The notes below the pieces were generated by a model. The model saw only the letters and a program-made list of their open reading frames with translations, ran no database searches and had not been told where the DNA came from. A stretch of DNA of 35,663 nucleotides from Kiritimatiellia bacterium. Lineage in GTDB: Bacteria > Verrucomicrobiota > Kiritimatiellia > SLAD01. The stretch is from positions 1 through 35,663 of the forward strand of contig SKLK01000186.1 in assembly GCA_007123265.1 (NCBI GenBank). Direction: 5' to 3'. Below, one piece after another: positions 1,569 to 20,811 of the stretch. A program made the position numbers and the translations under genes. Every line of letters begins with the position of its first letter. Position 1 is the stretch's first letter.

Positions 1569-1573
1569 GATTG

Positions 1574-4815: not shown

Positions 4816-4820
4816 GATGG

Positions 4821-5465: not shown

Positions 5466-5467
5466 GG

Positions 5468-7726: not shown

Positions 7727-8509
7727 ATGACCTGCTTGACGTTGCATTCGCGCTTTGCCCGTTGCCAGAACTACATGGCCCCGGACCATTCGCTTCACAC
7801 GTTGGCCTTGCCGGAACTGGGCGCAGGCCCGGATCGCACCGTGATGCGACGCTTACCCGATCCGCCGCTACCGACGTTAAAAATGCGTGACGATCAGGTC
7901 GAACTCCCCGAACCTTGGCGTCGCGAGCGTTGCCCTACGACCTACGCACCGCACTTACCCGCGTTGACGCCCCCGACCACGCACAGGCTCCAACAGCTCT
8001 GGCAACGTCTCGAACCCCTGTTCCCGGTCGAGTGCCTGTCGCTCTCCCGACCCATTCCGCGAACGGGCGTTCATCGGCGTATGGCCGAGCAGATGGCGGC
8101 CGGTCGCGCGGCCCTGACGCGAGGCGATGACACGGAAGCGACCCGCTGCCTGCGAGGGCTGGGCATTGGCTTAACACCATCAGGAGATGATTTTCTCTGC
8201 GGCTTTCTGTATGCCTTGGGCCTTGCCCCCCCTGCAGCTCAGGCCCGCCGATCTTCCTTACTCCGACACAGCTTGGGTGACAATGTGCTGGTCAACCATT
8301 TCTTGCGCTTGGCCGCCGCCGGCCTGTATCACGAACACTTCAAGGCCTTTGTCATGGCGGTATGCAGCGGGACAGAGGGCGCAATGGAAGACACCTTCAA
8401 GCCGCTGCTTCAACAGGGCGCAACCTCCGGAGTAGATACCGTCGCAGGATTCTTTTGTGGTCTGGAAGCTTATGCGCGCAGTGAGGCTTCGGCGCGTCGC
8501 GCCGTTTGA
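7727..8509 (+). CDS. DUF2877 / YlbF(AllH)-like protein
   Basis: The ORF has 260 codons. The LRGLGIGLTPSGDDFLCGFLYAL block matches what I recall as the conserved GxGxGLTPxGDDxLxG motif of DUF2877. Support also comes from linkage to FdrA-like and DUF1116 genes, as in the E. coli fdrA-ylbE-ylbF cluster. The N-terminal ~90 aa are Pro-rich, so the true start is uncertain. Confidence 0.55.
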   Translation: MTCLTLHSRFARCQNYMAPDHSLHTLALPELGAGPDRTVMRRLPDPPLPTLKMRDDQVELPEPWRRERCPTTYAPHLPALTPPTTHRLQQLWQRLEPLFPVECLSLSRPIPRTGVHRRMAEQMAAGRAALTRGDDTEATRCLRGLGIGLTPSGDDFLCGFLYALGLAPPAAQARRSSLLRHSLGDNVLVNHFLRLAAAGLYHEHFKAFVMAVCSGTEGAMEDTFKPLLQQGATSGVDTVAGFFCGLEAYARSEASARRAV

Positions 8510-9783
8510 ATCAGGCGCTCGTCCTCCGCCCAGCCGCCGACCCACTGCACGCCGAGAGGTAGCCCTGCATCCGAGCGGTCCGGCAGGGGCACGGTCACCG
8601 TCGGCAACCCAGTATAACTCCACGGCAAATTCATCCGCGGATTACCCGTCGACGCGAGACCGTGCGGCGCCGGACCGGTGGCCGAGGGGGTCACCCACGC
8701 ACACAGCTCTTGCGACAGACGCTGCTGCTCAACGCGCTCACGCAACGTCAACTGGCCAGCTCGTGCCTCCGCCAACCGCTCCGCCGACACCGCTTCGCCC
8801 CGCTCAATCAACGCACGGCTGGCAGATTGATACTGCGCGGCACACGCTGCAAACCACGGTCGATGATAGGCTGCCATTTCCGCTGCGATTAGATCGTAAT
8901 GAAGCTCGACCCAATCGTCCCAATCCGGAAACAGATCGGTTTCGATCACGGTGTAACCCGCCGCCCGTAACGCGTCCAACCACGACTCAAATGCGCCCAC
9001 CATCACATTGTCGGCCTGAGCCAAAAACGCCCCCGTTGGTACGCCCACCCGCTTGGCCGCGGCCCCTGAATGAGCTGGCTCGATGTTGCCCCAGTCAGAC
9101 CACAGACACCGGGCCACGACGTCCACGTCGTCGAGTTTCGACACGAAAAAGCCGACATGATCCACAGAGGCTGAGAACGGCACGCACCCCGCAGTGGATA
9201 GGCGACCGTAGGTTGGCTTGAACCCGGTTACCCCGCAATAGGAAGCCGGCCGGGCGATGGAACCAATGGTTTGGGTGCCCAACGCCAAAGGACAATAGCC
9301 CGCCGCAACCGCGGCGGCGGAGCCGCTGGAGGAGCCCCCGGGTGTGTGTTCCAGATGATGCGGATTACGCGTCGGCCCGGGATCCGCAAAGGCGAACTCG
9401 GTGGCCACGGTCTTTCCCAGCATCAGCGCCCCGGCGGCGCGCAGCGCCTGAATCACCGGACCTTCATCCCCGGCAAACCAATGCGGCGGCAGAGCAGATC
9501 CGGCTCGCGTTTCGAAACCTGTCACGTGAAACAGGTCTTTCACCCCCATCAACACGCCAAACAGCGGCGGACGCGCGGCGGAGTCGGGATAGCGCGCCAG
9601 CAGGTCACGGGCTTCTGCTTCAAGTCGCTCACGCCGTCCCGGCTCCGGCAGGAGGGCGGCCACTTCGGGTTCGCAGGCGTCGACGTGATCGCATGTCGCG
9701 TTGATATAGTCGAGCAACCCACGCGTACCGTTCCGCAAATCATCCACCAGATCGCGAAGCGCAGGTAACGGCTGTCCCGGCAT
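8470..9783 (-). CDS. Amidase-signature family amidohydrolase
   Basis: The sequence shows GVLMGVKDLF (catalytic Lys region) and GGSSSGSAAAVAAGYCPLALGTQTIGSIRRP-type signature (here ...GSIARPASYCGVTGFKPTYGR). The start ATG overlaps the upstream gene's TGA. Confidence 0.85.
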   Translation of the reverse strand: MPGQPLPALRDLVDDLRNGTRGLLDYINATCDHVDACEPEVAALLPEPGRRERLEAEARDLLARYPDSAARPPLFGVLMGVKDLFHVTGFETRAGSALPPHWFAGDEGPVIQALRAAGALMLGKTVATEFAFADPGPTRNPHHLEHTPGGSSSGSAAAVAAGYCPLALGTQTIGSIARPASYCGVTGFKPTYGRLSTAGCVPFSASVDHVGFFVSKLDDVDVVARCLWSDWGNIEPAHSGAAAKRVGVPTGAFLAQADNVMVGAFESWLDALRAAGYTVIETDLFPDWDDWVELHYDLIAAEMAAYHRPWFAACAAQYQSASRALIERGEAVSAERLAEARAGQLTLRERVEQQRLSQELCAWVTPSATGPAPHGLASTGNPRMNLPWSYTGLPTVTVPLPDRSDAGLPLGVQWVGGWAEDERLIQTARRAEASLRA

Positions 9784-10979
9784 CAGCAGATGCCTTCTTC
9801 GCGGAGACGCGCCACTTGTTCAGCGCTGTAGCCCAACCATTCCCGCAGGATCGGTTCGGTATGCTCGCCAACCTCGGGCACCGCCCCGCGTGTGCCGGTC
9901 TCGGGCACATGGGTCATTTTGATCGGGTTGCCGGCGAGCTTGACGCCCGCCAAGTTGGGATCGTCCAAATCAACCACCATGTCCCGCGCCAGAATCTGTG
10001 GATCAGCCATCACGCGGCCGACATCATTAATGGGGGCACTGGGGATCTCCGCCGCATCCAGAATGGCCAGCCATTCCGCCACCGTCTTGGTCGCAAAAAC
10101 GTCTGTTAACCACTCATTCAGATCCTCGACATTCTCGCAACGATCCCGGTTGGTGACGAACCGGGGATCACCGGCCATCTCCGGCTGGCCGACGGCTTGG
10201 CAAAAGCGCTGCCACAAGACTTCATTTCCCACGCCGATGACCAAATACGCGTCGCTGGCGCGTACGGCTTGAAACGGGGTAATCGTGGGATGGCGATGCC
10301 CCAACGGTTGTGGCGAAGTGCCGTCCACCTGATAGCGAACCAGGGCATTTTCGAGCAGGGCCACCTGACAATCCAGCATGGCCACATCGATCTTTTGCCC
10401 CACGCCCGTCCGCTCGCGCGCGTACAACGCCGCGTTAATGCCGACCGCCGTAAACAAGGACGCCGCCAAATCGCCAAACGACAACCCCACGCGCGTCGGC
10501 TCGCTGTCGGGCCAGCCGGTAATGCTCATGACACCACCGCGCGCTTGCGCCAAAATATCGTAGGCTGGCCGCTTGCTGTCCGGGCCGGTATGCCCGAATC
10601 CGGAGGCGGCGGCATAAATCAACCGCGGATTGAGCGCTGCCAAGGCCTCATAGCCCAGCCCCAACTTCTCCATGGTACCGGGCCGATAGTTTTCAATCAG
10701 GACATCCGCCTCTTTGACCAACGCTTCGAGAATGGCCTTGCCCTCCGTCGATTTCAGGTTCAAGGACAAACTTTCCTTGCCTCGATTGACGCTGGCGAAA
10801 TACAAACTGATATCGCGCAGAAACGGCCCGAACGTACGGGAATCATCGCCGCTGCCCGGTCGCTCGATCTTGATGATCCGCGCGCCCAAGTCCTGCAACA
10901 CCATCGTACAATAGGGACCCGCGAGGACCCGCGTGAGATCCAATACTTTGACGTGGGCTAACGGCTTTTCCGCAGTCAT
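9783..10979 (-). CDS. Family III CoA-transferase (CaiB/BaiF/Frc type)
   Basis: The N-terminus LAHVKVLDLTRVLAGPYCTMVLQDLGARIIKIERPGSGDDSR and the AYDILAQARGGVMSITG block (catalytic Asp region) are typical of this family. Confidence 0.85.
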   Translation of the reverse strand: MTAEKPLAHVKVLDLTRVLAGPYCTMVLQDLGARIIKIERPGSGDDSRTFGPFLRDISLYFASVNRGKESLSLNLKSTEGKAILEALVKEADVLIENYRPGTMEKLGLGYEALAALNPRLIYAAASGFGHTGPDSKRPAYDILAQARGGVMSITGWPDSEPTRVGLSFGDLAASLFTAVGINAALYARERTGVGQKIDVAMLDCQVALLENALVRYQVDGTSPQPLGHRHPTITPFQAVRASDAYLVIGVGNEVLWQRFCQAVGQPEMAGDPRFVTNRDRCENVEDLNEWLTDVFATKTVAEWLAILDAAEIPSAPINDVGRVMADPQILARDMVVDLDDPNLAGVKLAGNPIKMTHVPETGTRGAVPEVGEHTEPILREWLGYSAEQVARLREEGIC

Positions 10980-11013
10980 GTAATCACACCTTCCTGTTCG
11001 GCACGCGCCGACA

Positions 11014-11829
11014 TTACGGCTCGATCGCGATCAATCGGCACATGGACGATTCCAGCTCGATGCCGCGCAAGGGGAACAGGCCGATCCACAAGCGCTTGTT
11101 ACTGACCTCGTTAATTTGGCCTCCGACATTTTCCGCGTGCACCAAGCCTTTTGGAAACAGCTTCAGATGCATCACTTGATAGTACTCCTCCAACGGGAAC
11201 AACTCGTCCCAGGACTTGCCATAGGTCGCCTGCATCTTCTGGTCGGCCGCCGCAAAGTCACGCGGATGCCAATTGCGAATGATCGTATTCATCGGGTGAT
11301 CGGCGCTGCCGCAATCCACACCAATCCATTTGATCTTCATATCGAGCGCCCACTCATGAAAGTCCGGGCTGGGACCGGGGTGCCGGACAAAGTAGCGCAG
11401 CTCATCGGACTCGGGCTGGTCCCACGCGAAGCGGTTGTAACCGGTATTGATCAGCAAGATATCGCCCGACTGAATATCGGCCCGCTTCATCAGCAGCTCG
11501 GGCGAATACAGATCGTAATCTTCGACATCCTCCGAGATATCCACGACTACTCCCGGTCCGTACCAATGGTCCAGCGGCATGTCCCCGATCGAGCGCCCCG
11601 ACGCATGGAAATGAATCTCCCCGTCGATGTGCGTACCCACATGGTTGCTGGTGGTGATGATCTGTCCATTGGCGCCCTGGCCTTGATGGGCTCCTGCGAG
11701 CCGTTTGAAGTATTGGATGCCCAACGGCATATAACTTGGCCATGGCGGCGTGTGCACGCTCAAGCGTTGCGTCAGGTCGTAGATCTTCGCTTGCCCCATC
11801 AACTCAATAAATTCGCTTATCTGCATCAC
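11014..11829 (-). CDS. Cyclase-family metal hydrolase (kynurenine formamidase / isatin hydrolase-like)
   Basis: NHVGTHIDGEIHF matches the HxGTHxDxPxH-type motif of the putative cyclase family. The length is 271 aa. Confidence 0.75.
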   Translation of the reverse strand: MMQISEFIELMGQAKIYDLTQRLSVHTPPWPSYMPLGIQYFKRLAGAHQGQGANGQIITTSNHVGTHIDGEIHFHASGRSIGDMPLDHWYGPGVVVDISEDVEDYDLYSPELLMKRADIQSGDILLINTGYNRFAWDQPESDELRYFVRHPGPSPDFHEWALDMKIKWIGVDCGSADHPMNTIIRNWHPRDFAAADQKMQATYGKSWDELFPLEEYYQVMHLKLFPKGLVHAENVGGQINEVSNKRLWIGLFPLRGIELESSMCRLIAIEP

Positions 11830-11853
11830 GGTCTCCCTTGGTTAGTCCTTTGC

Positions 11854-13257
11854 TTAATTAGTAGAAAAAGTGGCGGCTAAGCCTTCAACAGCGCGCACGA
11901 ACGGGTCCATCGGCGCCGTTACCACCCCGGCTCCGACCTGGCCGACGCCGGCTTTTTTGTGGGCCACGCCGGTATCGAGAAACGGAACGATTCCCCGCTC
12001 GACCACGCGCACGGCATTAATCCCGGTGGGCGTCCCGCGAAAGTCCAGTGCAGGGATTTGGAATACGCCGTTTTCGTCCAAGGCAATCTCGTACATTTCC
12101 AGTGTATAATGCAGCGCATCGCGGGCGGAGCCGCCGACGAACTGAACGATGGCCGGGGCTGCGGCAATCGCGAAACCGCCCAACCCGCCCGTCTCGGTGA
12201 TGGTGCTATCGCCAATGTCCGGATTCGCGTCGTCTTTGGTGTATCCGGCAAAGAATAGTGCGTCCGGAACCAACGAGGCGCCGGTAAACCATGCCGAGCC
12301 GGTGCCGGCCAATTGAATACCGAAATCCGTGCCGTTGCGGGCCATCGCCACGACCATGGAACTGTCGGTGATATCGCGTACCGGATCCAAGGAGGCTTTG
12401 CACGCGGGCATGGAGAGGTTGAGGAAGAAGTGATCATTGCCGTTGATGAACTCGATCACCTCCGCCACGGTATCGCGGTCCGGCACGGACCGCACCAGCG
12501 CCGGAGTCACGGCGCGCAGGAACAAGGAGGTGCCGGCCCGGTTGCGATTGTGCACTTCGTCGCCCATGTGCAAGGCCTGGGCAATCATGTTCTTGAGATC
12601 GATCCCGCCGGTGGCCCGAATCGCGGCTTGCAAAGCGGGATACAACGTGTCCGCCATCCATTTCAAGCGGGTGACGACCTCGGGCGCATAGGCGCCATAG
12701 CGAAGGACCTTGCCCAGTCCTTCGTTCTGGGTGCAAAAGGCGCGATTCCCATACGTCTTGTTTTCGACAACAAAGACCGGCATCGAAGCCGAAACCACCC
12801 CGGCCATGGGACCCACGGCCTGATGTTCATGACAAGGCGCGAAGCGATAGCGGCCACCGGCCAACAGGGCCTCAGCCGCTTCTGGCGTATCCGCACCGCC
12901 CTCATAGAGCACCGCACCGATCATCGCGCCGCGCATCGGCCCACACATACGGTCCCAGGTAATCGGCGGTCCAGCATGCAGTAGCAAGTCATCCGCCATG
13001 CCGGGGATCAGGTCGCGCGCCACCCCCATATCAATCAGCACCGGTTGCGCCTTTTGCAAGCGCGCCACCGCCTCCTGATTCGCCGCCTCGATTCGCTCCG
13101 TGTGCCGGGCGATCACGGCCAGAACCCCGGCGTCCACCGGCGCAGGCGGCCGCCATTCCACGTGCACACTGTCCCCGCCGGCGGCACGGATCGCGGCGTC
13201 AAAGGATTCGAGCCCGACATTAATGACCTTCAGTGGTTGCGCCTGCAGCAGGCTCAT
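11854..13257 (-). CDS. DUF1116 / YlbE(AllG)-like protein
   Basis: Start was chosen at MSLLQAQPLKVINVG, whose ATG overlaps the fdrA-like stop as ATGA. LLHAGPPITWDRMCGPMRGA...APCHEHQAVGPMAGVVSASMPVFVVENKTYGNRAFCTQNEGLGKVLRYGAY...GDSTITETGGLGGFA closely follows E. coli YlbE as I remember it. The 48-codon Arg/Gly-rich extension to 13401 was rejected. Confidence 0.8.
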   Translation of the reverse strand: MSLLQAQPLKVINVGLESFDAAIRAAGGDSVHVEWRPPAPVDAGVLAVIARHTERIEAANQEAVARLQKAQPVLIDMGVARDLIPGMADDLLLHAGPPITWDRMCGPMRGAMIGAVLYEGGADTPEAAEALLAGGRYRFAPCHEHQAVGPMAGVVSASMPVFVVENKTYGNRAFCTQNEGLGKVLRYGAYAPEVVTRLKWMADTLYPALQAAIRATGGIDLKNMIAQALHMGDEVHNRNRAGTSLFLRAVTPALVRSVPDRDTVAEVIEFINGNDHFFLNLSMPACKASLDPVRDITDSSMVVAMARNGTDFGIQLAGTGSAWFTGASLVPDALFFAGYTKDDANPDIGDSTITETGGLGGFAIAAAPAIVQFVGGSARDALHYTLEMYEIALDENGVFQIPALDFRGTPTGINAVRVVERGIVPFLDTGVAHKKAGVGQVGAGVVTAPMDPFVRAVEGLAATFSTN

Positions 13258-14789
13258 GCGCGCCCCCCTTCCTGTAACGCCGCCACCCATTCGCCCGCCC
13301 ACGCGGCGGCTGCGGCATTGGAAGGCGCGAGCACGCCACCCGCCGCCTCCAACGCGGTGACCACCGACTCGCGCCCCTGCGGATCGGCGTCGGTCCCACA
13401 AACATGAAACAAGAGCACAGGCGGATTCTCGCGTTGTGAAATTTGCTGAAACAGTGGGACCAATTCTGCGGCCGGTTCCGCATGTGATCCATAGCCCAAC
13501 ACCACATCCAACAAGATCACACCGGTCTCTGGATCGTCGGCCTCGGCCAACAGGCGGCGATTGCGCAAGGCGAAGTCGATCATCGGGTGCGCACGTCCGG
13601 CGGTAAACTCGTCGCCACCCAAATCAATAACCGTATGCCCCTGGCTATGATCCGGATCGTCGAGGGCCGTGGTCACATTGTTGCGCAGCGTCCCCAATTT
13701 CGGCGTCAGTAAATGCACCGTCTCCTGGGCAAAGGTGCCGCCACAAAACAAGCCGCGCAAATAACGGCGCGGCGGAGCGGGTAACTGCGGCGCCGGAATC
13801 GTTCGTCCGCTCAAAAGCGCCAACGCTTGGTCGGGCGTTTCGCCGTTACTCAAGGCCACGGCCAGATAGGCTGCGGCCTCCAGCGTCGCAGCGGGGATGG
13901 CGCCGGACGCCTCCACGACGGCGGGATCGCCACCGATAAAGATCGCGACGACCGGCTTGTCCATGGCCCGGACCCGTTCAGCCAGTGCCTTTAACACTTC
14001 ATCGTCCGGCGTCTTTGACACCAACACCAATACGTCCGTCCCCTCGTCCTCGCTCAACAGGTTCAGGGCCGCCAGAAAGGTACGTCCGCCGACGGCGGCC
14101 TTGATATCCCGGCCGCCGGTACCGATGGCATGCGAAACGCCGCCCCCTTGTTGATGAATCAGGCTGGTCACTTCCTGCAAGCCGGTACCGGAGGCGGCGA
14201 CCAAGCCGATCCGGCCGCGCCGCACGACATTGGCAAACCCCAGCGGCACACCACCGATGATGGCTGTGCCGCAATCGGGTCCCATACACAGCACGCCCTT
14301 TTCCGTGGCCCGTTGTTTACAGGCAATTTCCGCGTCGAGCGACACGTTATCGGAAAACAACATCACATGCAGCCCGGCTTCAATGGCCTGCATCGCTTCC
14401 GCCGCCGCATAGCGCCCGGCAATCGAGATCAGCGCCAACTGTGCATCGGGATGACTGGCTAGTGCGCCGGCCAGACTGCGCGGATGAAAGGCTGTGTCCG
14501 CACTCGCGGCCGCGGGCTTCTTTTTCAGCAACGCCTCCATCTCCGCTACGGCCGATTCGGCCTCGGCCTTTGACTCAGCGAGGACGCCCAGCGCGAGATC
14601 GGTATCGGTGGCCTCGGCCAAACCCGGCCAATCCATCCCGGAGGCGGCCAGAATACGTTTATTTTCGGCCGTCGCCATAATCGCCGCTGCATCCTTCACG
14701 CCCGGCAACTCCAGCGCTTGCTTGGCCACGCGCATGAGTGACACGGAATCAAAATATTTGCCGGTTATGATCTGGCCCGCTGTATCCAT
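13254..14789 (-). CDS. fdrA: FdrA(AllF)-like protein (succinyl-CoA-synthetase-alpha-like CoA-binding/ligase fold)
   Basis: Start was chosen at MDTAGQIITGKYFDSVSLMRVAKQ, by analogy with the FdrA N-terminus (..F.DSVSLM..). The protein also has IGGVPLGFANVV.RGRIGLVAASGTGLQEV and GTGGRD blocks. The extension to 14888 was rejected. Confidence 0.8.
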   Translation of the reverse strand: MDTAGQIITGKYFDSVSLMRVAKQALELPGVKDAAAIMATAENKRILAASGMDWPGLAEATDTDLALGVLAESKAEAESAVAEMEALLKKKPAAASADTAFHPRSLAGALASHPDAQLALISIAGRYAAAEAMQAIEAGLHVMLFSDNVSLDAEIACKQRATEKGVLCMGPDCGTAIIGGVPLGFANVVRRGRIGLVAASGTGLQEVTSLIHQQGGGVSHAIGTGGRDIKAAVGGRTFLAALNLLSEDEGTDVLVLVSKTPDDEVLKALAERVRAMDKPVVAIFIGGDPAVVEASGAIPAATLEAAAYLAVALSNGETPDQALALLSGRTIPAPQLPAPPRRYLRGLFCGGTFAQETVHLLTPKLGTLRNNVTTALDDPDHSQGHTVIDLGGDEFTAGRAHPMIDFALRNRRLLAEADDPETGVILLDVVLGYGSHAEPAAELVPLFQQISQRENPPVLLFHVCGTDADPQGRESVVTALEAAGGVLAPSNAAAAAWAGEWVAALQEGGRA

Positions 14790-14839
14790 TCGTCTAGTTC
14801 CATCCCCGCTGCGCTCTCGCGCCAATGCTCCCGTTCCGT

Positions 14840-17287
14840 TTATCCCTTGACCCCGTCGTGCTTTCGCAACTCCGGCGCCGACCGGCATGATCCGACCGGT
14901 GATTTGGTAATCCAGTTATCGATCGGCTCTTTGTTGTTGAGCGCTCGCCACACATCTTCGAAACGCATCGGCATATGGGTCAACTCCACACCAATCGCCT
15001 GCTGCAGGGCGTTGCCCAACGCCGAACAGACCGAAATCATGGAATGCTCGCCGACGCCGCGGGCGCCGTAGGGCCCGTCGATCTGCGCCGTTTCAACCAC
15101 CATTGCCTCCACCTCCAACGGCAAGTCCATGGCTGTTGGAATTTTGTTATCGGTGAACGAGGGATTCAGCAACCGGCCCTGTTCATCAAAGATATAGCCT
15201 TCACAAAAGGCCGTGCCCAAGCCTTGCACCATGCCACCAATCGCTTGCCCGCGCACGAGTCCGGTATTAATGGCTTTGCCGACATCGAAGGCCGAAGCGA
15301 TCTTCAAAATCGTGTATTCACCGGTTTCCGGATCGGCTTCCACCACCATGCCGTGCGCGCCGTAGGTCCAATCCAGCGCGGGCAACCCTTGCCCGGTCTC
15401 CTTATCGATGTGCCCCAATCCTTGGGCGATGTATTTGCCCACGCCGATCAAGGGCCCGCCGATTCCGTTGCCGTCCGGATAGGCATAGCCCACGGCGATA
15501 TCCTGGAACCGAATAAACCGCGACGGATGATGGCGAATGAAAATCTTGTCCTCGTCATGGTCCATATCGTGATCGGTGGCACGAAGAATTTGCGATGCGA
15601 CAGCGTAGGCGTTCTTGAGCAAGTCCTCCGCCGCCAAAATCGTGGCATTGCCGGAAAGCATCAACCCTTTGGAGGCCACAGTTTGCCAATCGTACGGGTC
15701 GCGATCGGTATCCGTCTCAAAGGCGACATGAATCTTTTCCAACGGAAACCTCAATCGCTCCGCCGCCAACTGCGCCAGCGAGGTGTAAGTGCCCTGCCCC
15801 ATATCCGTGAGCGACACGTTCAAGGTGACGGTGCCGTCCTGATTCATCTTCAACACCACAGAGGCGGCGGTAAACGGGGGCATCGCAGGCGCCTTTTGCA
15901 ACGCCGCCACGGCCTTGCCGATTTTCCGGCCCGTCGCCTTTTCACGGGCCGCCTCGTCCGGGGTCAACTGGCCGTATTGGATCGATTCGGCAACGGACTC
16001 AACACACTGGATGACATTACCCGTATGCGCTGTGATTTCCTCACCCGTAATGGTCAGGGAACCGGGGCGCAGTAGATTCTTGCGCCGGAATTCCAGCGGG
16101 TCCATGTCAATGGCGGACGCGACCAGTTCCATGTGCCGCTCGATGCCCCAATGGAACTCGACATGGCCGAAACCGCGGTAGGCGGTGCTGTAGGGTTTGT
16201 TCGTGTAAAGGGCGTAGGAATCCACCCAGCAATTGGGGATTTCGTACGGGCCGGAACCGGAATAGGAGGCGGCGCGTTGCACGTTCACCGCATAGTCGGC
16301 ATAGGCGCCTGCGTCCCAATACTGTGTCATTTGTTGGGCGACGATGCGGCCATCCGCCATCACACCGGTCTTGATGCGTTGTTGCAATCCGCTGCGACAA
16401 GGCAACAAGCTGAATTCCTCCTCGCGCGTGGCCTGCACGCGTACCGGGCGCCCGCCTGCTTTGCGTGACAACACCGCCACCAGCGGTTCCAATCCGATAC
16501 CCGCCTTGCCCCCGAAACCGCCACCGATATACGGCACCATCACCCGCACATTGCGGTGCGGGATCTTGAAGGCCACCGCAAAGAGATTCTTGACCGTGTG
16601 CGGCGACTGCGCCGCCGACCAAATCCGCACTTCATCGCCCGCACACCATTGGGCGATCGACACATGCGTCTCAATCGGGACATGCTGAACGGAGGGATTC
16701 GTGTAGAACCGTTCCACGACATAATCCGCCTCGGCCATCGCCTTTTCCATGTCGCCTTTGCGGATCTTGTTGTGATTGACGATATTTGTGCCGGGGCGGG
16801 GCGTGAAAGCCGGCTTGAAATAGTCGTAGCTGCCCAACTCCGGATGTACCAGCGGCGCGTCTTCCTTGATCGCGTCCAACGGATGCAACACCGGCGGCAA
16901 GACTTCGTACTCGACCTCAATCAACTCGACAGCCCGCTCAGCGATAACCAACGTATCCGCAGCCACCGCCGCCACCGCCTCGCCGTAATGGCGCACTTCG
17001 CCTTTGGCGAGAATATATTTGTCCACCACGTACAGGCCCAACCGATAATCCAATTCCTCGCCGGTCACGACTGCGCGCACACCGGGCAAGGCCGCCGCTC
17101 GCGAGGTGTCAATGCGCACAATCCGGGCGCGTGCGTGCGGGCTTTTCTTGATCCGGGCATGCAACATCCCAGGCATCACCATATCTCCGACATACGTCGC
17201 TTGACCGGTCAGTTTTACCGTAGATTCCAAGCGGGCCGGGTCGGTACCGACATATTTCAGTGTGGCCGGGTCAACCTGATCATACAT
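14840..17287 (-). CDS. Molybdopterin-binding large subunit of an XDH/aldehyde-oxidase/CoxL-family hydroxylase
   Basis: The protein is 815 aa. The N-terminus has the a/b-hammerhead pattern (KLTGQATYVGDMVMPGMLHARIKKSPHARARIVRID). The GGGFGGKAG motif is present. No CoxL-type VAYRCSFR loop was seen. Confidence 0.9.
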   Translation of the reverse strand: MYDQVDPATLKYVGTDPARLESTVKLTGQATYVGDMVMPGMLHARIKKSPHARARIVRIDTSRAAALPGVRAVVTGEELDYRLGLYVVDKYILAKGEVRHYGEAVAAVAADTLVIAERAVELIEVEYEVLPPVLHPLDAIKEDAPLVHPELGSYDYFKPAFTPRPGTNIVNHNKIRKGDMEKAMAEADYVVERFYTNPSVQHVPIETHVSIAQWCAGDEVRIWSAAQSPHTVKNLFAVAFKIPHRNVRVMVPYIGGGFGGKAGIGLEPLVAVLSRKAGGRPVRVQATREEEFSLLPCRSGLQQRIKTGVMADGRIVAQQMTQYWDAGAYADYAVNVQRAASYSGSGPYEIPNCWVDSYALYTNKPYSTAYRGFGHVEFHWGIERHMELVASAIDMDPLEFRRKNLLRPGSLTITGEEITAHTGNVIQCVESVAESIQYGQLTPDEAAREKATGRKIGKAVAALQKAPAMPPFTAASVVLKMNQDGTVTLNVSLTDMGQGTYTSLAQLAAERLRFPLEKIHVAFETDTDRDPYDWQTVASKGLMLSGNATILAAEDLLKNAYAVASQILRATDHDMDHDEDKIFIRHHPSRFIRFQDIAVGYAYPDGNGIGGPLIGVGKYIAQGLGHIDKETGQGLPALDWTYGAHGMVVEADPETGEYTILKIASAFDVGKAINTGLVRGQAIGGMVQGLGTAFCEGYIFDEQGRLLNPSFTDNKIPTAMDLPLEVEAMVVETAQIDGPYGARGVGEHSMISVCSALGNALQQAIGVELTHMPMRFEDVWRALNNKEPIDNWITKSPVGSCRSAPELRKHDGVKG

Positions 17288-17768
17288 GTTTCAGCGCCCC
17301 CTTCTGCGGCAATTGCCCCGTCACATCCAACACCGCCTCAATCACCTGCACGTAGCCGGTGCAGCGACAGAAGTTGCCTTCGATCCCCGCCTTGATCTCG
17401 TCCACCGAAGGCTTCGGGTTGCGGCGGAGCAGGTCCTGGATCGACATCAACAAGCCCGGCGTACAAAAACCGCATTGCGTCGCGTGGTGGCGGGCAAAGG
17501 CCGCTTGCAAATCGGATAGCGTGTTGCCGTCGGCCTGACCCTCAACCGTCTCGATCACGGCGCCATTTGCTTCCACCGCCAGCACCAAGCAAGCGTTCAC
17601 CGCTTTCCCGTTCAGGATCAGCGTACAGGCCCCACATTCTCCAGCGGCGCAGCCTTCCTTGGTCCCGGTCAAACCGAGGTCCTCACGCAAAAAGTGCAGC
17701 AGGGTCTTGTATTCGGTGGTCTCCCGCTCATAGACCTGTCCATTCACTGTCAGTTGCACCTGCATCAT
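17280..17768 (-). CDS. [2Fe-2S]-binding small subunit of the Mo hydroxylase
   Basis: Start MMQVQLTVNG overlaps the FAD-subunit stop as ATGA. The two cluster motifs GCAAGECGACTLILNG and QCGFCTPG...CRCTGY are present. There is an 8-nt overlap with the large-subunit start. Confidence 0.9.
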   Translation of the reverse strand: MMQVQLTVNGQVYERETTEYKTLLHFLREDLGLTGTKEGCAAGECGACTLILNGKAVNACLVLAVEANGAVIETVEGQADGNTLSDLQAAFARHHATQCGFCTPGLLMSIQDLLRRNPKPSVDEIKAGIEGNFCRCTGYVQVIEAVLDVTGQLPQKGALKHV

Positions 17769-18580
17769 ACCACCTCCTGCCAGAGCCGTCGCAGGTAGAC
17801 ACCCGCCATAAACAGTCGATAATCCCGTGTACAACGCACATCATCGATCGGATTGATCGCAGCCGACAGGGCCTCCTGCACGCTCGCCAGCGGTTCATCG
17901 GCAGCGAATTCACCGACATAGACCGGTGTCGGCGCCGCGGAACTGACGGCCACTCGAACGCGATCGCGTTGACGCCACAAAGCGACGCCGACGATGCCGA
18001 GGTCGTGACCTTGAATACGCTTCAACTTCTTATAGCCACCTTGACCATCGGCCGTTTCTGCGGGTACTAGAATACGGCTTACCAATTCACCTGGACGCAG
18101 AACAGTTTGCTTGGCTGCCACGAAGAATTCGCGGCATGAAACCTGACGCGCGCCATCCGCGGATTGGATTTCGATGGCGGCATCGAGGCATAGTAGCGGC
18201 GGGGCCAGATCAGCGCAGGGCGAGGCATTGACAATATTGCCGACCACCGTGGCCCGGTTCCGCACTTGATGCGAAGCCAGTTGATGGGCGCATTGCACCA
18301 GCAACGGATAATGCGCCTGCACCGCGTCATTTTCCATCAAGGCATTCACGGTCACCGCCGCACCAATCGACAGACCGGTTTCCGGCGTATAGGTGAGTGT
18401 ATCGATACCGGGCACCGCCTTAATATCGATCACATGCGTCGGCGCCATCAGGCCGGCACGGATGTTCACAAGCAGATCGGTACCCCCGGCCAATATACGG
18501 GCGTCGGCGCCAAGCTCAGCCAGCCCTGCCACTGCGTCCTGGAAGGACGATGCCAACCGGTATTGGAACACGTGGTTCAT
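17765..18580 (-). CDS. FAD-binding medium subunit of the Mo hydroxylase (CoxM/XdhB-like)
   Basis: ARILAGGTDLLVNIRAG and the ATVGGN-type motif (here ATVVGNIVNASP) are present. It is 271 aa and the first gene of the operon. Confidence 0.85.
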   Translation of the reverse strand: MNHVFQYRLASSFQDAVAGLAELGADARILAGGTDLLVNIRAGLMAPTHVIDIKAVPGIDTLTYTPETGLSIGAAVTVNALMENDAVQAHYPLLVQCAHQLASHQVRNRATVVGNIVNASPCADLAPPLLCLDAAIEIQSADGARQVSCREFFVAAKQTVLRPGELVSRILVPAETADGQGGYKKLKRIQGHDLGIVGVALWRQRDRVRVAVSSAAPTPVYVGEFAADEPLASVQEALSAAINPIDDVRCTRDYRLFMAGVYLRRLWQEVV

Positions 18581-18688
18581 ATTCCCCGCCTATCTCCGCT
18601 GATCCCACACCACCGCCAACACGACCAGGATCAATGTGGTGCGTGTTGGCCATCGTCGACTATAGCAAACGAACACAATTGATCTACG

Positions 18689-18736
18689 AAAAAAAGGGGT
18701 CAGCAAAAACGGGCGGGAAATTTAATTGGCTGACCC
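18689..18736 (-). terminator. Probable intrinsic terminator of the HEAT-repeat gene
   Basis: On the minus strand GGGTCAGC...GCTGACCC (18736-18729 / 18704-18697) is followed by a run of 7 T (complement of 18689-18695), 17 nt after the stop at 18753. The loop is large at 24 nt. Confidence 0.4.
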
Positions 18737-18752
18737 TTTTGATGATTTCTTG

Positions 18753-20600
18753 TCAAGGTTGCGAGGAAAGAGCTTCTTTCAGGCGGTGTAATGGCCAAGG
18801 CAGTGATCGGGGCAGAACGTGGCGACGCCCCGCCAGGTCACGGATAATATCTTGTGCAATCATTTCAGCGGCCGAAGGCAAAAGATGGCTTCGAATTTCT
18901 GTGCCGGAGGTACGCTTGAAATATCCCCTTCTTGATTGCGCGTAACGATAACGCTTAATTTGAGGACCACTTTCTATCACGAGGGTGATACGCAAACTGA
19001 CTTTAGCAGGGCGGCTAGGGTTGGCTTTGCCCAAGCCGAGCGCATTTTCAACCCGGGACCGAACTGTGTCCCAGTATCGGGTCTCAATCTCAACCGAACC
19101 TTCAAGACGAATGGCACCCTCCGCTTGCTTCGGCCCAACGAGCTTATACCCAGCGGCAATCAACGCGTCACTCAATGTGTCCAGAAAAGGCCCCTCCTGC
19201 GTTGCATGCATCATTTCAACATGTTGGTTGCCGCGCATATCGTCTTTCAAAGAAATATCGAAGGGCTGAAGCAATATACGCGGTCGATCGCGCAGCACCT
19301 GCTCCGCCCGCTCCCTATGCAAAAGAAGGCGATCGGGCACATTGTCGACTTCATTCGCCTCCACCAAAGCCAGCAATGCGGCGGCGACTCGATAACGAAC
19401 GACTGCTTGTGGATGCTCCAGTGCGCGGGCGATTTTTTCCGCCCCCGCAGCGCCAAGCCTCGTCAACGCCTCCGTGGCCGCATGATTCACCTCCGCGTCC
19501 CGGCTGGAAATCAAAACAGCAAAAAGCGCTTCGCACGCGCTCGGGTCACCAATCTTAGCCAAGGCCTCCGCTGCCAAGACCTGAACAGGTCCCCTGTCCC
19601 GACGAAGTATGGTCTGCATCGTTTTAACCGATGCCGGATCCCCACGATCGCCCAGCGCCCGAATCGATTCCTTTCGAGCTTCGGTGGCCCGCCATCGTCG
19701 GCGCGCCACTTGCTCCAAGTGCAGACGAGCCGCTGGATCGGTGATACGGCCAAGCGCAGCGGTTATCGCACCGAGCTCGCTGGTGAAGTCATCCTCCAGC
19801 ATTCCTTGCCGCGCAATCAAGGGTTCAATGGCACGCGGATCATCTAGTTCCGCTAATGCCGCAGCCGCCTCAATCCGGACACGCAACAGATCGTTATCGT
19901 CATCTTCAATGAGTTTGATAAGGGGGGGCACGGCGCGGGCATCACCAAGCCGCCCCAAGGCCTCGGCAGCCGCTTCGGCCGTTGCGCTGGCGCTGGCCCG
20001 TGTCTCGCTGGCTCCCATAAACCGCGTCGCCGATAAGGCACGGATCAGTGGCTCGACGGCATTGGAGGCGCCCGAGTTGCCCAGCGCCACGGCCGCCGCT
20101 CTGCGCGTTAGGTCCACCCCACCCCAACGGTCGTCTGGCAAGCGGAGAATGCGTATAAGCAAGGCCAGCACCCGTTCCTCGTATTCGTCGGCTATCGCCA
20201 ATTGTTCCAATGCCCAAAAATCTTGCGTGGACACCTGCCCGCGCAGCCGGACAATCCGTTGCAGCAACACGACCGGCTCCTCGACAGGCTGCCGCTCCTC
20301 CACTGCCGCCGTGGGAACCACATCCGATTCGAGCTCCCCGTTTACCGCCTCGACCGGCTCGGGTTCCGGTGCGCGTCCTGTTCGCTCTATGACGGTGACA
20401 TGTCCCTGCTCGAACGTGATGATTTTACCGGGATAAATCCACAAGGCACGGTCACCCATACGCATCTGGCCGCTTGGACTTCCGTACTGCTGCCGGATCG
20501 CCTCCTGATCAAGTCCGGTCAAATCGGCTGCGTTCTCCGCCAGACCCACAAGCGGGAATGCGATAGAGAAAAGACCCGCCACAATTTGGAACTTGCTCAT
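18753..20600 (-). CDS. Secreted HEAT-repeat (PBS-lyase-like) protein with unrecognised N- and C-terminal domains
   Basis: Start was chosen at MSKFQIVAGLFSIAFPLVGLAENA (signal peptide). Repeated ..ALG.LGD.RAV.PLI..L.D.. units occur, for example EALGRLGDARAVPPLIKLIEDDD, ALAELDDPRAIEPLI, ALGDRGDPASV and ALAKIGDPSACEAL. Confidence 0.7.
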   Translation of the reverse strand: MSKFQIVAGLFSIAFPLVGLAENAADLTGLDQEAIRQQYGSPSGQMRMGDRALWIYPGKIITFEQGHVTVIERTGRAPEPEPVEAVNGELESDVVPTAAVEERQPVEEPVVLLQRIVRLRGQVSTQDFWALEQLAIADEYEERVLALLIRILRLPDDRWGGVDLTRRAAAVALGNSGASNAVEPLIRALSATRFMGASETRASASATAEAAAEALGRLGDARAVPPLIKLIEDDDNDLLRVRIEAAAALAELDDPRAIEPLIARQGMLEDDFTSELGAITAALGRITDPAARLHLEQVARRRWRATEARKESIRALGDRGDPASVKTMQTILRRDRGPVQVLAAEALAKIGDPSACEALFAVLISSRDAEVNHAATEALTRLGAAGAEKIARALEHPQAVVRYRVAAALLALVEANEVDNVPDRLLLHRERAEQVLRDRPRILLQPFDISLKDDMRGNQHVEMMHATQEGPFLDTLSDALIAAGYKLVGPKQAEGAIRLEGSVEIETRYWDTVRSRVENALGLGKANPSRPAKVSLRITLVIESGPQIKRYRYAQSRRGYFKRTSGTEIRSHLLPSAAEMIAQDIIRDLAGRRHVLPRSLPWPLHRLKEALSSQP

Positions 20601-20811
20601 GGTCACGGACCGGGGTTCGCAGTCTATACTCGGGCTATGCATTGAGTATGGCCCGCGCGCCCCTCGCACGCAAGATTCTTGTCTACATTGCGCACTGGCG
20701 TGCAGATACACCGGTGTTTTGTTAAAATCGCAATGCGTGCTGAAAATCAAGCGGGATCACTCTGCCAGATCCGATATATCTGCGAAGAGCTATGGAAACT
20801 ATTTAATCCCC

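Follow-up and report, generated by a model that had tools for sequence, protein, structure and literature searches.

A conserved gene cluster of anaerobic bacteria that may encode an oxygen-independent oxidative pathway for pyrimidines

Introduction

The AllF, AllG and AllH proteins of Escherichia coli act, when purified, as an oxalurate/oxamate carbamoyltransferase (PMC11326118). The cyclase family of metal hydrolases includes the ring-opening isatin hydrolase as well as the dihydrophloroglucinol cyclohydrolase of anaerobes (PMC10470551). Relatives of both systems lie together with a molybdenum enzyme, an amidase and a CoA-transferase on a contig of a Kiritimatiellia bacterium, analysed here over its 35,663 nt (the window). 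A first-pass annotation had read these genes as a route from a cyclic ureide through oxalurate and oxamate to oxalate, and had considered the combination uncharacterised. The latter point stands as far as the literature searched shows: no description of the cluster was found there.

Results

Organization of the locus

All nine genes proved to be real, at the coordinates first annotated, and every family assignment, including DUF1116, DUF2877 and FdrA, was upheld by profile searches against Pfam and NCBIfam (Table 1). Four further contigs carry an identical cluster, and their genes, called independently, are concordant. The operon had been described as packed with stop-start overlaps. Such overlaps are present at four of its seven junctions: ATGA at FAD/2Fe-2S and at AllF/AllG, ATGTATGA at 2Fe-2S/Mo, and TGATG at CoA-transferase/amidase. 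The start of the 2Fe-2S gene, the ATG of which overlaps the stop of the FAD gene, was adopted from the sister-contig gene calls; similarly, the AllG ATG overlaps the AllF stop, the mechanical ORF of AllG reaching 13401. Short gaps separate AllG from the cyclase gene (27 nt) and the latter from the CoA-transferase gene (34 nt). Between the Mo and AllF genes, an AllF start at 14789 (511 aa) leaves some 48 nt, and one at 14888 (544 aa) produces a 49-nt overlap; the former start is the more probable. The DUF2877 gene (AllH) converges on the operon end, as annotated, the last 40 nt being common to the 3′-ends of AllH and the amidase gene. This convergent placement is repeated in a sister lineage (L002) and in the identical contigs.

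The flanking genes (subtilases, a HEAT-repeat protein and MetRS) are unrelated to the operon. Carbamate kinase, AllC and AllD had been reported missing; no homologue of any of them, or of AllE, was found within the window. Permease and decarboxylase genes were likewise absent from the window, and the links to such genes described below come from related loci. The leader contains a hairpin and a T-run downstream of the upstream HEAT-repeat gene, and about 100 untranslated nt with a GGAG Shine-Dalgarno sequence ahead of the FAD-subunit ATG. Since the leader matched no Rfam family and contained no promoter consensus above chance, a promoter at this site can only be presumed.

Table 1. Features of the locus in the window
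Feature	Coordinates	Strand	Length and evidence
Operon leader, intergenic	18581..18760	-	sequence read
FAD-binding subunit, xanthine-dehydrogenase-family Mo enzyme	17765..18580	-	271 aa; PF00941 (164 bits), PF03450
2Fe-2S subunit	17280..17768	-	162 aa; PF01799, PF00111
Mo (molybdopterin) subunit	14840..17287	-	815 aa; PF01315, PF02738, PF20256
AllF/FdrA-like subunit	13254..14888 (alternative start 14789)	-	NF004760, PF00549
AllG/DUF1116 subunit	11854..13257	-	467 aa; PF06545 (331 bits)
Cyclase-family metal hydrolase	11014..11826/9	-	270 aa; PF04199 (117 bits)
Family-III CoA-transferase	9783..10979	-	398 aa; PF02515 (CoA_transf_3; 437 bits)
Amidase-signature amidase	8470..9783	-	437 aa; PF01425 (226 bits)
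AllH/DUF2877 subunit	7727..8509	+	260 aa; PF11392 (72 bits)

The encoded enzymes

The FAD subunit, for which the sister-contig gene call is the same, scored under every NCBIfam equivalog cut-off, and the Mo subunit missed that for XdhA (511 bits against 780). Among solved structures, the Mo subunit is closest to the alpha subunit of 4-hydroxybenzoyl-CoA reductase (313 bits). The Mo subunit belongs to a 'Spirochaete-type' lineage, with 70–73% identity to the Spirochaete proteins and 42% to the mainstream Mo subunits of the cluster; despite this distance, both cluster-linked xanthine dehydrogenase (XDH) lineages have the active-site motifs GGGFGGKAGI, YRGFGHVE and GARGVGEHSM in common. The C6-H of uracil, an sp2 C-H beside a ring nitrogen, is a standard target of this enzyme family, and the Mo subunit is proposed as a candidate uracil/thymine C6-hydroxylase.

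At 453 bits, AllF exceeded the NF004760 cut-off of 433; its identity is 40% with E. coli AllF and 41% with YahF. AllG is 48% identical to its E. coli namesake and 44% to YahG, its identity to cluster-linked orthologues from other phyla being 60–78%; AllH shows 31% identity to E. coli AllH. The cyclase-family enzyme, whose gene is the signature of the cluster, is 70–90% identical across phyla, its metal motif (HVGTHIDGEIH) shows no variation in the family alignment, and Foldseek matches were limited to cyclase-family hydrolases. We propose it as a candidate ring-opening barbiturate amidohydrolase.

Malonamidase E2 (MAE2) is the top solved relative of the amidase (179 bits, E = 1e-51, nearly full length), followed by GatA (136 bits). 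The window protein has the MAE2-type motif GTQTIGSIARPA, and all the cluster amidases matched by motif search (41 of 53 hits) contain GTQT[IV]GSxxRPA, with an Arg at +3 from the motif Ser, as in the GTQTGGSVIRPA of MAE2. The score of the window amidase for the nearest NCBIfam equivalog, an unnamed amidase model (PRK08310), fell far short of the cut-off (188 bits against 391). The likeness to MAE2 suggests a candidate malonamidase. The CoA-transferase had been thought to be of the oxalate type. The oxalate enzyme YfdE is indeed its closest characterised relative (328 bits, 42% identity to the E. coli protein), ahead of SUGCT (304 bits) and Frc (34% identity), which counts against a role with malonate; however, its 377 bits with the YfdE equivalog model fell short of the cut-off, 522. 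It is proposed as a candidate malonate (or methylmalonate) CoA-transferase.

Recurrence of the cluster and linked genes

Conservation of the neighbourhood, which the first-pass annotation had singled out for checking, was borne out: three genome scans found the set of triad, cyclase and Mo enzyme again in about 230 distinct regions (149 + 81), from many anaerobic, mostly uncultured phyla. The first two scans yielded 118 regions (of 149) with AllG and the cyclase, 108 of these with XDH subunits too; in the third, the cyclase was present in 67 of 81 regions and the Mo subunit in 41. Where a cyclase region extended for at least 6 kb on both sides (56 regions), AllF and AllG were found in 53 and the Mo subunit in 50. 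The association of these genes is thus far above chance. Spirochaeta isovalerica (L257) is a cultured carrier, and has selenium-cofactor genes adjoining XDH. A YafV/omega-amidase-like CN-hydrolase takes the place of the amidase in Elusimicrobia, and in about 48 regions a module of a 'c10' protein, a thiolase and DUF35 replaces the CoA-transferase, a replacement for which the model proposed below gives no account.

Of the regions from the first two scans, 14 have an NCS2 permease gene within the cluster or beside it, as do 31 of those from the third. In Cloacimonadota and Spirochaetes loci, the orthologue contains the motif ENTGAVALTG, its leading Glu being that of UraA (ENIGVMAITR) and RutG; Gln takes this place in XanQ and UacT. 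Identity of the orthologue is 37–38% to UraA/RutG and 27–29% to UacT/XanQ, and its scores with the NCBIfam models for UraA, RutG and PbuX were 359, 299 and 223 bits, respectively. Acidobacteriota loci have a Gln-type permease, which counts against uracil as the substrate. PreA-like and dihydropyrimidinase genes border the cluster in two loci (L078 and L203), as does a PreA-like gene in S. isovalerica. Of the 81 third-scan loci, 10 encode a carbamate kinase inside the cluster or next to it; a related kinase (L174) reached the TIGR00746 cut-off. A YahJ-like amidohydrolase and a BMP-type nucleoside ABC transporter are added in some loci.

The malonate decarboxylase alpha subunit, MdcA (758 bits), adjoins the triad in three regions, and an MmdA-type carboxyltransferase lies beside or inside the cluster in seven loci; in L235 it separates the Mo gene from AllF. 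Where the ORFs of these MmdA-type loci were examined, they also included OAD-gamma, biotin-carrier and OAD-beta genes. These decarboxylase-linked regions are a small minority of the roughly 230, which counts against the pathway proposed below. Oxalyl-CoA decarboxylase (Oxc) had no match in 251 loci or in the window; AllD and AllE had none in the 251 loci, and no locus contained allantoin genes or barbiturase homologues.

Discussion

What the analysis establishes directly is which gene families are present, that their linkage is conserved, and which accessory genes are linked to them. Judging from sequence comparisons, we hold with moderate confidence that the operon encodes an O2-independent 'oxidative' pyrimidine pathway with energy-conserving phosphorolysis, leading from uracil or thymine to malonyl- or methylmalonyl-CoA. 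The FAD/2Fe-2S/Mo enzyme would hydroxylate C6 of uracil (thymine), with water as the oxygen source, and the resulting barbiturate (5-methylbarbiturate) would be opened to ureidomalonate (N-carbamoyl-malonamate) by the cyclase-family hydrolase, which would substitute for the unrelated barbiturase of aerobes. The triad would convert ureidomalonate and phosphate into carbamoyl phosphate and malonamate; ureidomalonate is the homologue, one carbon longer, of oxalurate, the only proven substrate of AllFGH. A carbamate kinase, in-cluster in some relatives and presumably encoded elsewhere in this genome, would make ATP from carbamoyl phosphate. The malonamidase-E2-like amidase would release malonate and NH3, the family-III CoA-transferase would form malonyl-CoA (methylmalonyl-CoA if from thymine), and a decarboxylase, of the Na+-pumping biotin-dependent type beside the cluster in some relatives, would yield acetyl-CoA (or propionyl-CoA). 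This enzyme logic, much of which (hydroxylation, ring opening, triad, amidase and CoA transfer) the first-pass annotation had already set out, is supported by the conserved synteny and by the swapping of single steps for non-homologous enzymes (the CN-hydrolase for the amidase-signature enzyme, MdcA for the family-III CoA-transferase).

The C2 series of that annotation, from a hydantoin- or parabanate-like ureide to oxalurate, then to oxamate plus carbamoyl phosphate, oxalate and oxalyl-CoA, is disfavoured. It agrees with the proven AllFGH substrate, the 40–48% identity of AllF and AllG to their E. coli counterparts, the YfdE-like CoA-transferase (YfdE being its top NCBIfam and PDB relative) and the action of isatin hydrolase on a five-membered alpha-keto-lactam. 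Nevertheless, a C3 carbon skeleton is more likely than a C2 one, because the amidase is MAE2-like, the linked permeases are of the uracil/RutG type, MdcA and the biotin-dependent MmdA-type decarboxylases of related loci point to malonyl/methylmalonyl units, Oxc, AllD and AllE are missing, and the YfdE cut-off was not reached. Further, there was no sign of a formyl-CoA transferase partner; HpxW, the named oxamate amidase, is a member of a different family; and the C5 atom of hydantoin is sp3-hybridised, which is atypical of the carbons attacked by the Mo enzyme family. The C2 series thus appears quite improbable. Somewhat less so, although still unlikely, is another N-heterocycle (cytosine or a modified uracil after deamination, a pyrimidinone, an environmental ureide) degraded to a C3–C4 dicarboxylate N-acylurea. 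Whatever speaks for Mo hydroxylation, for ring opening, for the triad and for an amide hydrolase fits it equally; the two XDH lineages, the YahJ-like and nucleoside-transporter genes, the Gln-type permease of Acidobacteriota, and a CoA-transferase that in NCBIfam resembles mesaconate, glutarate and oxalate enzymes to about the same degree would also agree with it. However, the commonest linked permease is UraA/RutG-like, genes of the reductive uracil pathway neighbour the cluster in three lineages, and the MAE2-like amidase, MdcA and MmdA suit the malonyl/methylmalonyl units expected from uracil and thymine.

Two further readings are both very improbable. The FdrA-like protein and its partners might form an ADP-forming acyl-CoA synthetase in a CoA-ester pathway for a (hetero)aromatic acid, the Mo enzyme acting on the CoA ester like 4-hydroxybenzoyl-CoA reductase or furoyl-CoA dehydrogenase. 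The solved relative of the Mo subunit, the succinyl-CoA-ligase-like domains of FdrA (still named 'acyl-CoA synthetase FdrA' in NCBIfam) and the CoA-transferase or thiolase of the cluster would accord with this, but the reductase likeness is family-level only (483 bits against an equivalog cut-off of 995), the triad is a carbamoyltransferase wherever tested, carbamate kinase accompanies 10 related loci, the linked genes include those for nucleobase permeases and small-amide hydrolases, and a hydratase/dehydrogenase set as for a CoA-ester pathway is not conserved. Alternatively, the Mo enzyme might be a xanthine dehydrogenase in anaerobic purine (xanthine/urate) fermentation, the cyclase and triad removing the ureido carbon from the pyrimidine ring of xanthine. 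XdhA, XdhB and XdhC are among the top NCBIfam matches of the three subunits, the permeases belong to the xanthine/uracil family, and purinolytic clostridia, like S. isovalerica, have selenium-cofactor genes beside XDH. Against this, every XDH equivalog cut-off was missed, and GGGFGGK is directly followed by Ala, at the position of the substrate-binding Glu of xanthine dehydrogenases (bovine numbering). The permease, with its uracil-type Glu motif, is nearer to UraA/RutG, no linked gene serves allantoin or other purine catabolism, and a purine route would leave the malonamidase-like amidase, the dicarboxylate CoA-transferase, MdcA and MmdA without a role.

The cluster is widespread among anaerobic bacteria and, as far as the literature searched shows, uncharacterised. 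If the pyrimidine pathway proposed here is correct, it would represent a new mode of pyrimidine fermentation, proceeding without oxygen.

Gene content of the operon and its flanks

The gene list drawn up in the first-pass annotation agreed exactly with the ORF listing and with profile searches against Pfam and NCBIfam (see table). FdrA/AllF, DUF1116/AllG and DUF2877/AllH are referred to below as the triad, and the FAD, 2Fe-2S (FeS) and molybdopterin (Mo) subunits together as XDH.

Genes of the operon and neighbouring features of the window, with the profile matches obtained
Feature	Position	Strand	Profile match or remark
FAD subunit	first gene of the run 18580 to 8470	-	PF00941
2Fe-2S subunit	second gene	-	PF01799 and PF00111
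Molybdopterin subunit	third gene	-	PF01315, PF02738, PF20256
FdrA/AllF	fourth gene	-	NF004760, 453 bits (cut-off 433)
AllG/DUF1116	fifth gene	-	PF06545, 331 bits
Cyclase-family protein	sixth gene	-	PF04199, 117 bits
Family-III CoA-transferase	seventh gene	-	PF02515, 437 bits
Amidase-signature (AS) amidase	eighth gene, end at 8470	-	PF01425
AllH/DUF2877	7727–8509	+	PF11392, 72 bits
PEP-CTERM-tagged protein	1574–2314		
S8 subtilase	2209–4773		
S8 subtilase	5468–7093		
HEAT/PBS-lyase-repeat protein	18753–20750		615–665 aa; between MetRS and the operon

The allH gene converges on the amidase gene, their 3′ ends overlapping by 40 nt. The packing by stop-start overlaps that had been read from the sequence was found at four of the seven junctions (ATGA, ATGTATGA, ATGA and TGATG); it did not hold between the AllG and cyclase genes (27-nt gap) or between the cyclase and CoA-transferase genes (34-nt gap), while at the Mo–AllF junction the choice of AllF start decides between a gap of about 48 nt and an overlap of 49 nt. 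An identical cluster was present on four other contigs, one of them from NCBI assembly GCA_007134275.1, and the gene calls there give shorter starts (FeS subunit, 162 aa; AllG, 467 or 478 aa; AllF, 511 or 544 aa). The nearest relatives in the genome scans were Kiritimatiellae MAGs labelled CSSed.

The flanking genes, coding for two subtilases, a PEP-CTERM protein, a HEAT-repeat protein, MetRS, ComEC and thiamine functions, are unrelated to the operon. Positions 599–7093, which hold the subtilase and PEP-CTERM genes and an unannotated 306-aa ORF, look like an exported-protease island beside it. A long-loop hairpin followed by a T-run lies directly after the HEAT/PBS-lyase-repeat gene, with no evident tie to the operon. 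An Rfam scan of the window gave no RNA family, and a scan of the window for promoters and terminators gave none above chance.

Conservation and rearrangement of the gene set

With the window AllG as query and one genome per species (scan 1), more than 585 relatives were found, and the best 80 loci were mapped with tblastn. These 80 came from Kiritimatiellia, Cloacimonadota, Elusimicrobiota, Ignavibacteriota, Bacteroidales, Verrucomicrobiota and other phyla, and almost all of them carried AllH-AllF-AllG-cyclase-FAD-FeS-Mo. The reciprocal scan with the cyclase (scan 2) gave 213 relatives, the best 80 of which showed the same gene set. After removal of duplicates, the best 80 loci of each scan made up 149 regions; AllG and the cyclase were both present in 118 of these, 108 of which also had XDH subunits. 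In the 56 regions where 6 kb or more flanked the cyclase on each side, AllF and AllG were found in 53 and the Mo subunit in 50. A third scan, for which AllG of a Spirochaete locus served as query, brought to light 81 loci that make up a second clade, again with this gene set and distributed over Spirochaetota, Thermotogota, Eisenbacteria, Acidobacteriota, Bipolaricaulota, Myxococcota, Alphaproteobacteria and Firmicutes. Since the gene set recurs in both clades, it represents a real and widely distributed gene cluster. Conservation of the neighbourhood, named in the first-pass annotation as a point to be checked, was thus borne out for the triad, cyclase and XDH over many phyla (149 plus 81 regions). 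At the species level, the genomes that carry the cluster number several hundred or more and belong to abundant uncultured lineages of sediments, digesters and groundwater. Two other recurrent neighbours, an ABC-2/gliding-type transporter upstream of the cluster in some Cloacimonadota and rimP-nusA-infB-truB beside the Elusimicrobia clusters, were judged to reflect coincidental synteny.

The commonest order in clade 1 was AllH-AllF-AllG-cyclase-XDH-(CoA-transferase-amidase). In the window and two Kiritimatiellae sister loci (L002 and L093) the order was XDH-AllF-AllG-cyclase-CoA-transferase-amidase, with AllH convergent. The window cyclase, AllG and AllF stand no further from the other clade-1 proteins than these do from one another (median identities of 75, 63 and 48%, respectively). 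With the mainstream Mo subunits, which have a median identity of 69% among themselves, the window Mo subunit shared only 42% identity; with Spirochaete proteins it shared 70–73%. XDH of the window type heads Spirochaete loci such as L175 and L176, arranged as XDH-permease-AllH-AllF-AllG-cyclase-CoA-transferase-amidase. The window operon (XDH at 14840–18580), which joins a Spirochaete-type XDH to a clade-1 cyclase, AllF and AllG in a rearranged order, is thus a mosaic of two clades. The motifs GGGFG[GS]KAG, YRGFG and GARGVGEH are common to both XDH lineages, which argues for their having one function.

The triad and its relation to E. coli AllFGH

All three OXTCase subunit families are present in the window, at 31–48% identity to E. 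coli AllF, AllG and AllH. The purified E. coli proteins interconvert oxalurate plus Pi and oxamate plus carbamoyl phosphate (PMC11326118). By analogy, the window triad is predicted to catalyse the same type of reaction, the phosphorolysis of an N-acylurea to carbamoyl phosphate and an amide. Unlike its E. coli counterpart, it is linked to a Mo hydroxylase, a cyclase-family hydrolase, an amidase and a CoA-transferase, and the substrate proposed for it, ureidomalonate, is one carbon longer than oxalurate. The context argues for this predicted activity on the C3 homologue of oxalurate.

In identity terms the window triad is equally distant from E. coli AllFGH and from its uncharacterised paralogues YahE/F/G (AllG, 48% to AllG vs 44% to YahG; AllF, 40% vs 41% to YahF; AllH, 31% vs 27% to YahE), and most related clusters have their genes in the H-F-G order, as in yahEFG. 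In E. coli K-12, yahE-yahF-yahG are followed by the carbamate-kinase-like yahI and the amidohydrolase gene yahJ (L082:2926–9508); yahE-yahJ may encode an analogous N-acylurea pathway. Residues 59–105 of the window AllG (window 13090–13250) resemble the C-terminal tail of E. coli AllF (residues 513–555; 38% identity). The N-terminal part of AllG thus matches the AllF tail, and the AllF/AllG polypeptide boundary therefore differs between lineages.

A homologue search of the window found no carbamate kinase, AllC, AllD or AllE. This confirmed the reported lack of a carbamate kinase and, as regards AllC and AllD, the reported lack of allB-, allC- and allD-type genes. AllD and AllE also gave no match in the 251 related loci. 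In contrast to the E. coli anaerobic allantoin pathway, the window thus has no allK, the carbamate kinase gene being embedded instead in 10 related clusters. None of the 149 regions of scans 1 and 2 (best 80 loci each) had it; all 10 cases were among the 81 scan-3 loci, found only with the Spirochaete AllG as seed, and six of the genes are embedded on the same strand (for instance in L202, L218, L222, L225 and L254). In nitrifier MAGs, allFGHK has been tied to biuret and triuret genes (PMC12625717).

The molybdenum enzyme and the cyclase-family hydrolase

The window XDH has the complete set of modules of the xanthine oxidase/dehydrogenase superfamily, namely the FAD domain, two [2Fe-2S] domains, the Mo-pterin domains and the catalytic Glu. 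It fell short of every equivalog cut-off, those of the XdhABC/PucCDE NCBIfam models included (Mo, 511 vs 780 bits; FeS, 164 vs 217; FAD, 165 vs 310), and the structure nearest to the Mo subunit is that of 4-hydroxybenzoyl-CoA reductase. The Mo subunit reads GGGFGGKAGI; the Ala after GGGFGGK stands where xanthine dehydrogenases have a substrate-binding Glu (Glu802 of bovine XDH, together with Arg880 and the catalytic Glu1261), whereas the Arg in YRGFG and the Glu in GVGEH are both retained. The missed cut-offs and the active-site Ala led us to reject xanthine dehydrogenase as the identity of this enzyme.

The cyclase is the most conserved protein of the cluster (70–90% identity across phyla), and its metal motif HVGTHIDGEIH was invariant in 29 homologues. 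The PF04199 fold and the HxGTHxDxxxH motif are shared with kynurenine formamidase, isatin hydrolase and dihydrophloroglucinol cyclohydrolase. However, identity to the solved PF04199 members is only 16–21%, the sequence match lies mainly in the N-terminal 100 residues, the protein is some 60 residues longer than kynurenine formamidase, and the equivalog for the latter, TIGR03035, was missed (53 bits vs a cut-off of 223). Judged by sequence, the window cyclase is a member of a subfamily of its own, one with more than 2500 clusters at 90% identity, all bearing generic names. Foldseek searches with an AlphaFold model, whose confidence is low near the metal site, retrieved only cyclase-family hydrolases, at 16–21% identity; they reconfirmed the family and gave no substrate information. 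Precedent for the opening of a lactam ring within PF04199 is provided by isatin hydrolase, which acts on isatin, while dihydrophloroglucinol cyclohydrolase, a Mn-dependent enzyme of anaerobes, opens a six-membered cyclic 1,3-dicarbonyl ring (PMC10470551).

At one related locus (L087:2–1390, contig-edge ORF P0013) two cyclase domains are fused in tandem, both sharing about 50% identity with the window cyclase, and genes for XDH, CoxG and a UraA-like permease come next; similar proteins of about 460 aa bear Chloroflexi and Syntrophobacteraceae names. At two others (L208:12465–18514 and L241:2356–7500) a YahJ-like amidohydrolase lies beside the cyclase. The same variant includes an ABC transporter of the BMP type, made up of a two-domain ATPase and two BPD_transp_2 permeases, as is found beside allFGHK in nitrifier MAGs.

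The amidase, the CoA-transferase and their replacements

The best solved relative of the window amidase is malonamidase E2 (MAE2) of Bradyrhizobium japonicum (PDB 1OCK; 179 bits, E = 1e-51, nearly full length), followed by GatA (136 bits). The window amidase contains the MAE2-type segment GTQTIGSIARPA, and GTQT[IV]GSxxRPA was also found in 41 cluster-linked amidases. In GTQTxGSxxRPA an Arg lies at +3 from the nucleophilic Ser, as in MAE2 (GTQTGGSVIRPA), where it binds the malonamate carboxylate. The match to MAE2, at 179 bits, is nevertheless only moderate and the genomic context differs; hydrolysis of malonamate by the window amidase is a prediction. The nearest NCBIfam equivalog is an unnamed amidase model, PRK08310 (188 bits vs a cut-off of 391).

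The CoA-transferase matched the dicarboxylate-type family-III enzymes YfdE (328 bits) and SUGCT (304 bits) best and over its full length. It is 42% identical to E. coli YfdE and missed the YfdE equivalog cut-off (377 vs 522 bits). As for oxalate-catabolic neighbours, oxc gave no match in the 251 loci and the window, and frc and yfdV were not among the neighbouring genes. Unlike in the YfdE system, elsewhere in the cluster family MdcA, a malonate CoA/ACP-transferase, stands where the window has its CoA-transferase; MdcA was found in three regions, two of Spirochaetota and one of Kiritimatiellia (L074). In the last, a CN-hydrolase gene and MdcA are divergent from GDH-AllH-AllF-AllG.

The CoA-transferase and AS amidase, as in the window, occurred in 44 and 41 regions, respectively, of scans 1 and 2, and in 21 and 22 of scan 3. 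About 48 regions had instead a protein of 205–270 aa (family c10) with an archaeal-type thiolase and a DUF35 protein, never alongside a family-III CoA-transferase. The c10 family (for example L031:16371–17066 and L090:3586–4353) has a mean column identity of 66% and is always followed by the thiolase and a DUF35/ChsH2-like protein. Searches of Pfam, NCBIfam and the PDB sequences with c10, its profile included, gave no match; a GNAT-like, malonyl-CoA-decarboxylase-like nature was a guess from the sequence pattern only and is not claimed. Elusimicrobia have a YafV/omega-amidase-like CN-hydrolase instead of the AS amidase. A Na+-translocating, biotin-dependent acyl-CoA decarboxylase was linked in seven loci (MmdA subfamily, 790 bits; OAD-gamma; biotin carrier; OAD-beta, 543 bits), its genes being inserted between the Mo and AllF genes in L235 and lying directly upstream of AllH in the Bacteroidales loci L106 and L130.

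An NCS2 permease was linked in 14 regions of scans 1 and 2 and in 31 of scan 3. That of Cloacimonadota and Spirochaetes has the NAT signature ENTGAVALTG, whose first Glu is as in E. coli UraA and RutG and is Gln in XanQ and UacT, and shows 37–38% identity to UraA/RutG vs 27–29% to UacT/XanQ; the permease of the Acidobacteriota cluster is of the Gln type. In L078 and L203 the cluster lies beside PreA-like and dihydropyrimidinase genes, and a PreA-like gene also borders it in the cultured Spirochaeta isovalerica, where the order is PreA-like / AllH, permease / XDH-AllF-AllG-cyclase-c10-thiolase-DUF35. GntR/FCD regulators were present in 13 loci, and Rnf and PFOR are neighbours of the cluster in L172. 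Directly downstream of the S. isovalerica cluster (L257:13220–20858) lie genes for SelD, a Se/S carrier, TusA/DsrE, a class-V aminotransferase, XdhC, MoeA and MOSC, a set that suggests a selenium-dependent molybdenum hydroxylase. In unrelated lineages a glutamate dehydrogenase gene directly adjoins the cluster (L020:16405–17766, on the same contig as L156, and L074:6414–7760), which is consistent with assimilation of the ammonia released.

A proposed route for pyrimidine bases and its alternatives

The gene families and their linkage are matters of observation. We consider it quite likely that the cluster degrades a cyclic ureide by way of an N-acylurea cleaved by the triad. The specific route, in which we infer every chemical step, is on balance probably an anaerobic version of the oxidative pyrimidine pathway acting on uracil or thymine. 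The first step would be a C6 hydroxylation of uracil (or thymine) that uses water and yields barbiturate (or 5-methylbarbiturate), the ring of which would be hydrolysed by the cyclase-family enzyme to ureidomalonate. Phosphorolysis by the triad would yield carbamoyl phosphate and malonamate; carbamate kinase would provide ATP, and the amidase malonate. The CoA-transferase (or MdcA) would form malonyl-CoA or methylmalonyl-CoA, and a decarboxylase would convert these to acetyl-CoA or propionyl-CoA.

The oxidative pathway is reportedly one of aerobic actinomycetes; Soong, Ogawa and Shimizu are said to have described uracil/thymine dehydrogenase (EC 1.17.99.4), barbiturase and ureidomalonase in Rhodococcus erythropolis, and the dehydrogenase is reported to be a three-subunit Mo/FAD/Fe-S protein. 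This is the subunit set of the window XDH, and the intermediates proposed here (uracil, barbiturate, ureidomalonate) and the end product malonate are likewise those of the aerobic pathway. The barbiturase of that pathway, however, belongs to the AtzD/TrzD family, and tblastn with AtzD gave no match in the 251 loci and the window (3.8 Mb in all); the cyclase-family enzyme would replace it here. Further, ureidomalonase frees urea hydrolytically, whereas the triad and the malonamidase-like amidase would free carbamoyl phosphate and NH3, conserving energy. The carriers of the cluster, in contrast to the aerobic actinomycetes, are anaerobes. The literature searched gave no sequence-linked report of EC 1.17.99.4. 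A retro-Claisen C–C opening of barbiturate, leading through acetylurea to acetamide, was also considered and set aside; it clashes with the carboxylate-binding type of the amidase, the dicarboxylate CoA-transferases and the decarboxylases.

The oxalurate/oxamate/oxalate series put forward in the first-pass annotation would retain the proven substrate of the triad and accords with the similarity of the CoA-transferase to YfdE. It is contradicted, however, by the types of the amidase and the permease, by the linked MdcA and MmdA-type decarboxylases and by the absence of Oxc and of the allantoin genes AllD and AllE from the 251 loci, and it would require Mo hydroxylation at an sp3 carbon; we regard it as improbable. 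Breakdown of some other pyrimidine-like heterocycle by the same enzyme logic has a small but appreciable likelihood, while a CoA-ester aromatic pathway and a purine fermentation both fit the gene set poorly and are most improbable.

Novelty and significance

That the combination is uncharacterised agreed with a search of the full-text literature (subscription journals being outside it), which returned no description of this cluster; the only related matches were the AllFGH papers and the nitrifier MAG study with allFGHK. The cluster is a new, coherent combination of known enzyme families. More tentatively, and with a likelihood a little short of even, it would be a complete new route of pyrimidine-base fermentation, widespread in uncultured anaerobes (the carriers include Cloacimonadota, Elusimicrobiota, Spirochaetota, Bacteroidales, Ignavibacteriota, Kiritimatiellia and Thermotogota), in which a new lineage of Mo hydroxylases oxidises uracil or thymine with water, a new cyclase-family hydrolase opens barbiturate, AllFGH-type enzymes act as general N-acylurea phosphorylases, and c10, the thiolase and DUF35 carry out new chemistry on the C3 fragment.

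To our knowledge, the reductive route is the only one known for anaerobic pyrimidine breakdown, and we know of the oxidative route from uracil through barbiturate to malonate only in aerobes, its first enzyme still being without a sequence. The cluster supplies testable candidates for an oxygen-independent oxidative route, for a second physiological substrate of the AllFGH carbamoyltransferase class and for a function new to the cyclase family, itself poorly understood; being directly testable in a cultured carrier, it is of high practical interest. If the proposal is true, the orphan uracil dehydrogenase EC 1.17.99.4 would gain a sequence, and AllFGH-type enzymes would let anaerobes make ATP from ureido groups. 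Annotation would also improve for the thousands of genes that at present carry the names 'cyclase', 'arylformamidase', 'xanthine dehydrogenase' or 'acyl-CoA synthetase FdrA'. For fermenters, the candidate energy gain from nucleobases would comprise ATP from carbamate kinase and a Na+ gradient from malonyl-CoA decarboxylase. Since several hundred species-level genomes carry the cluster, it bears on the recycling of nucleic-acid nitrogen and carbon in anoxic habitats.
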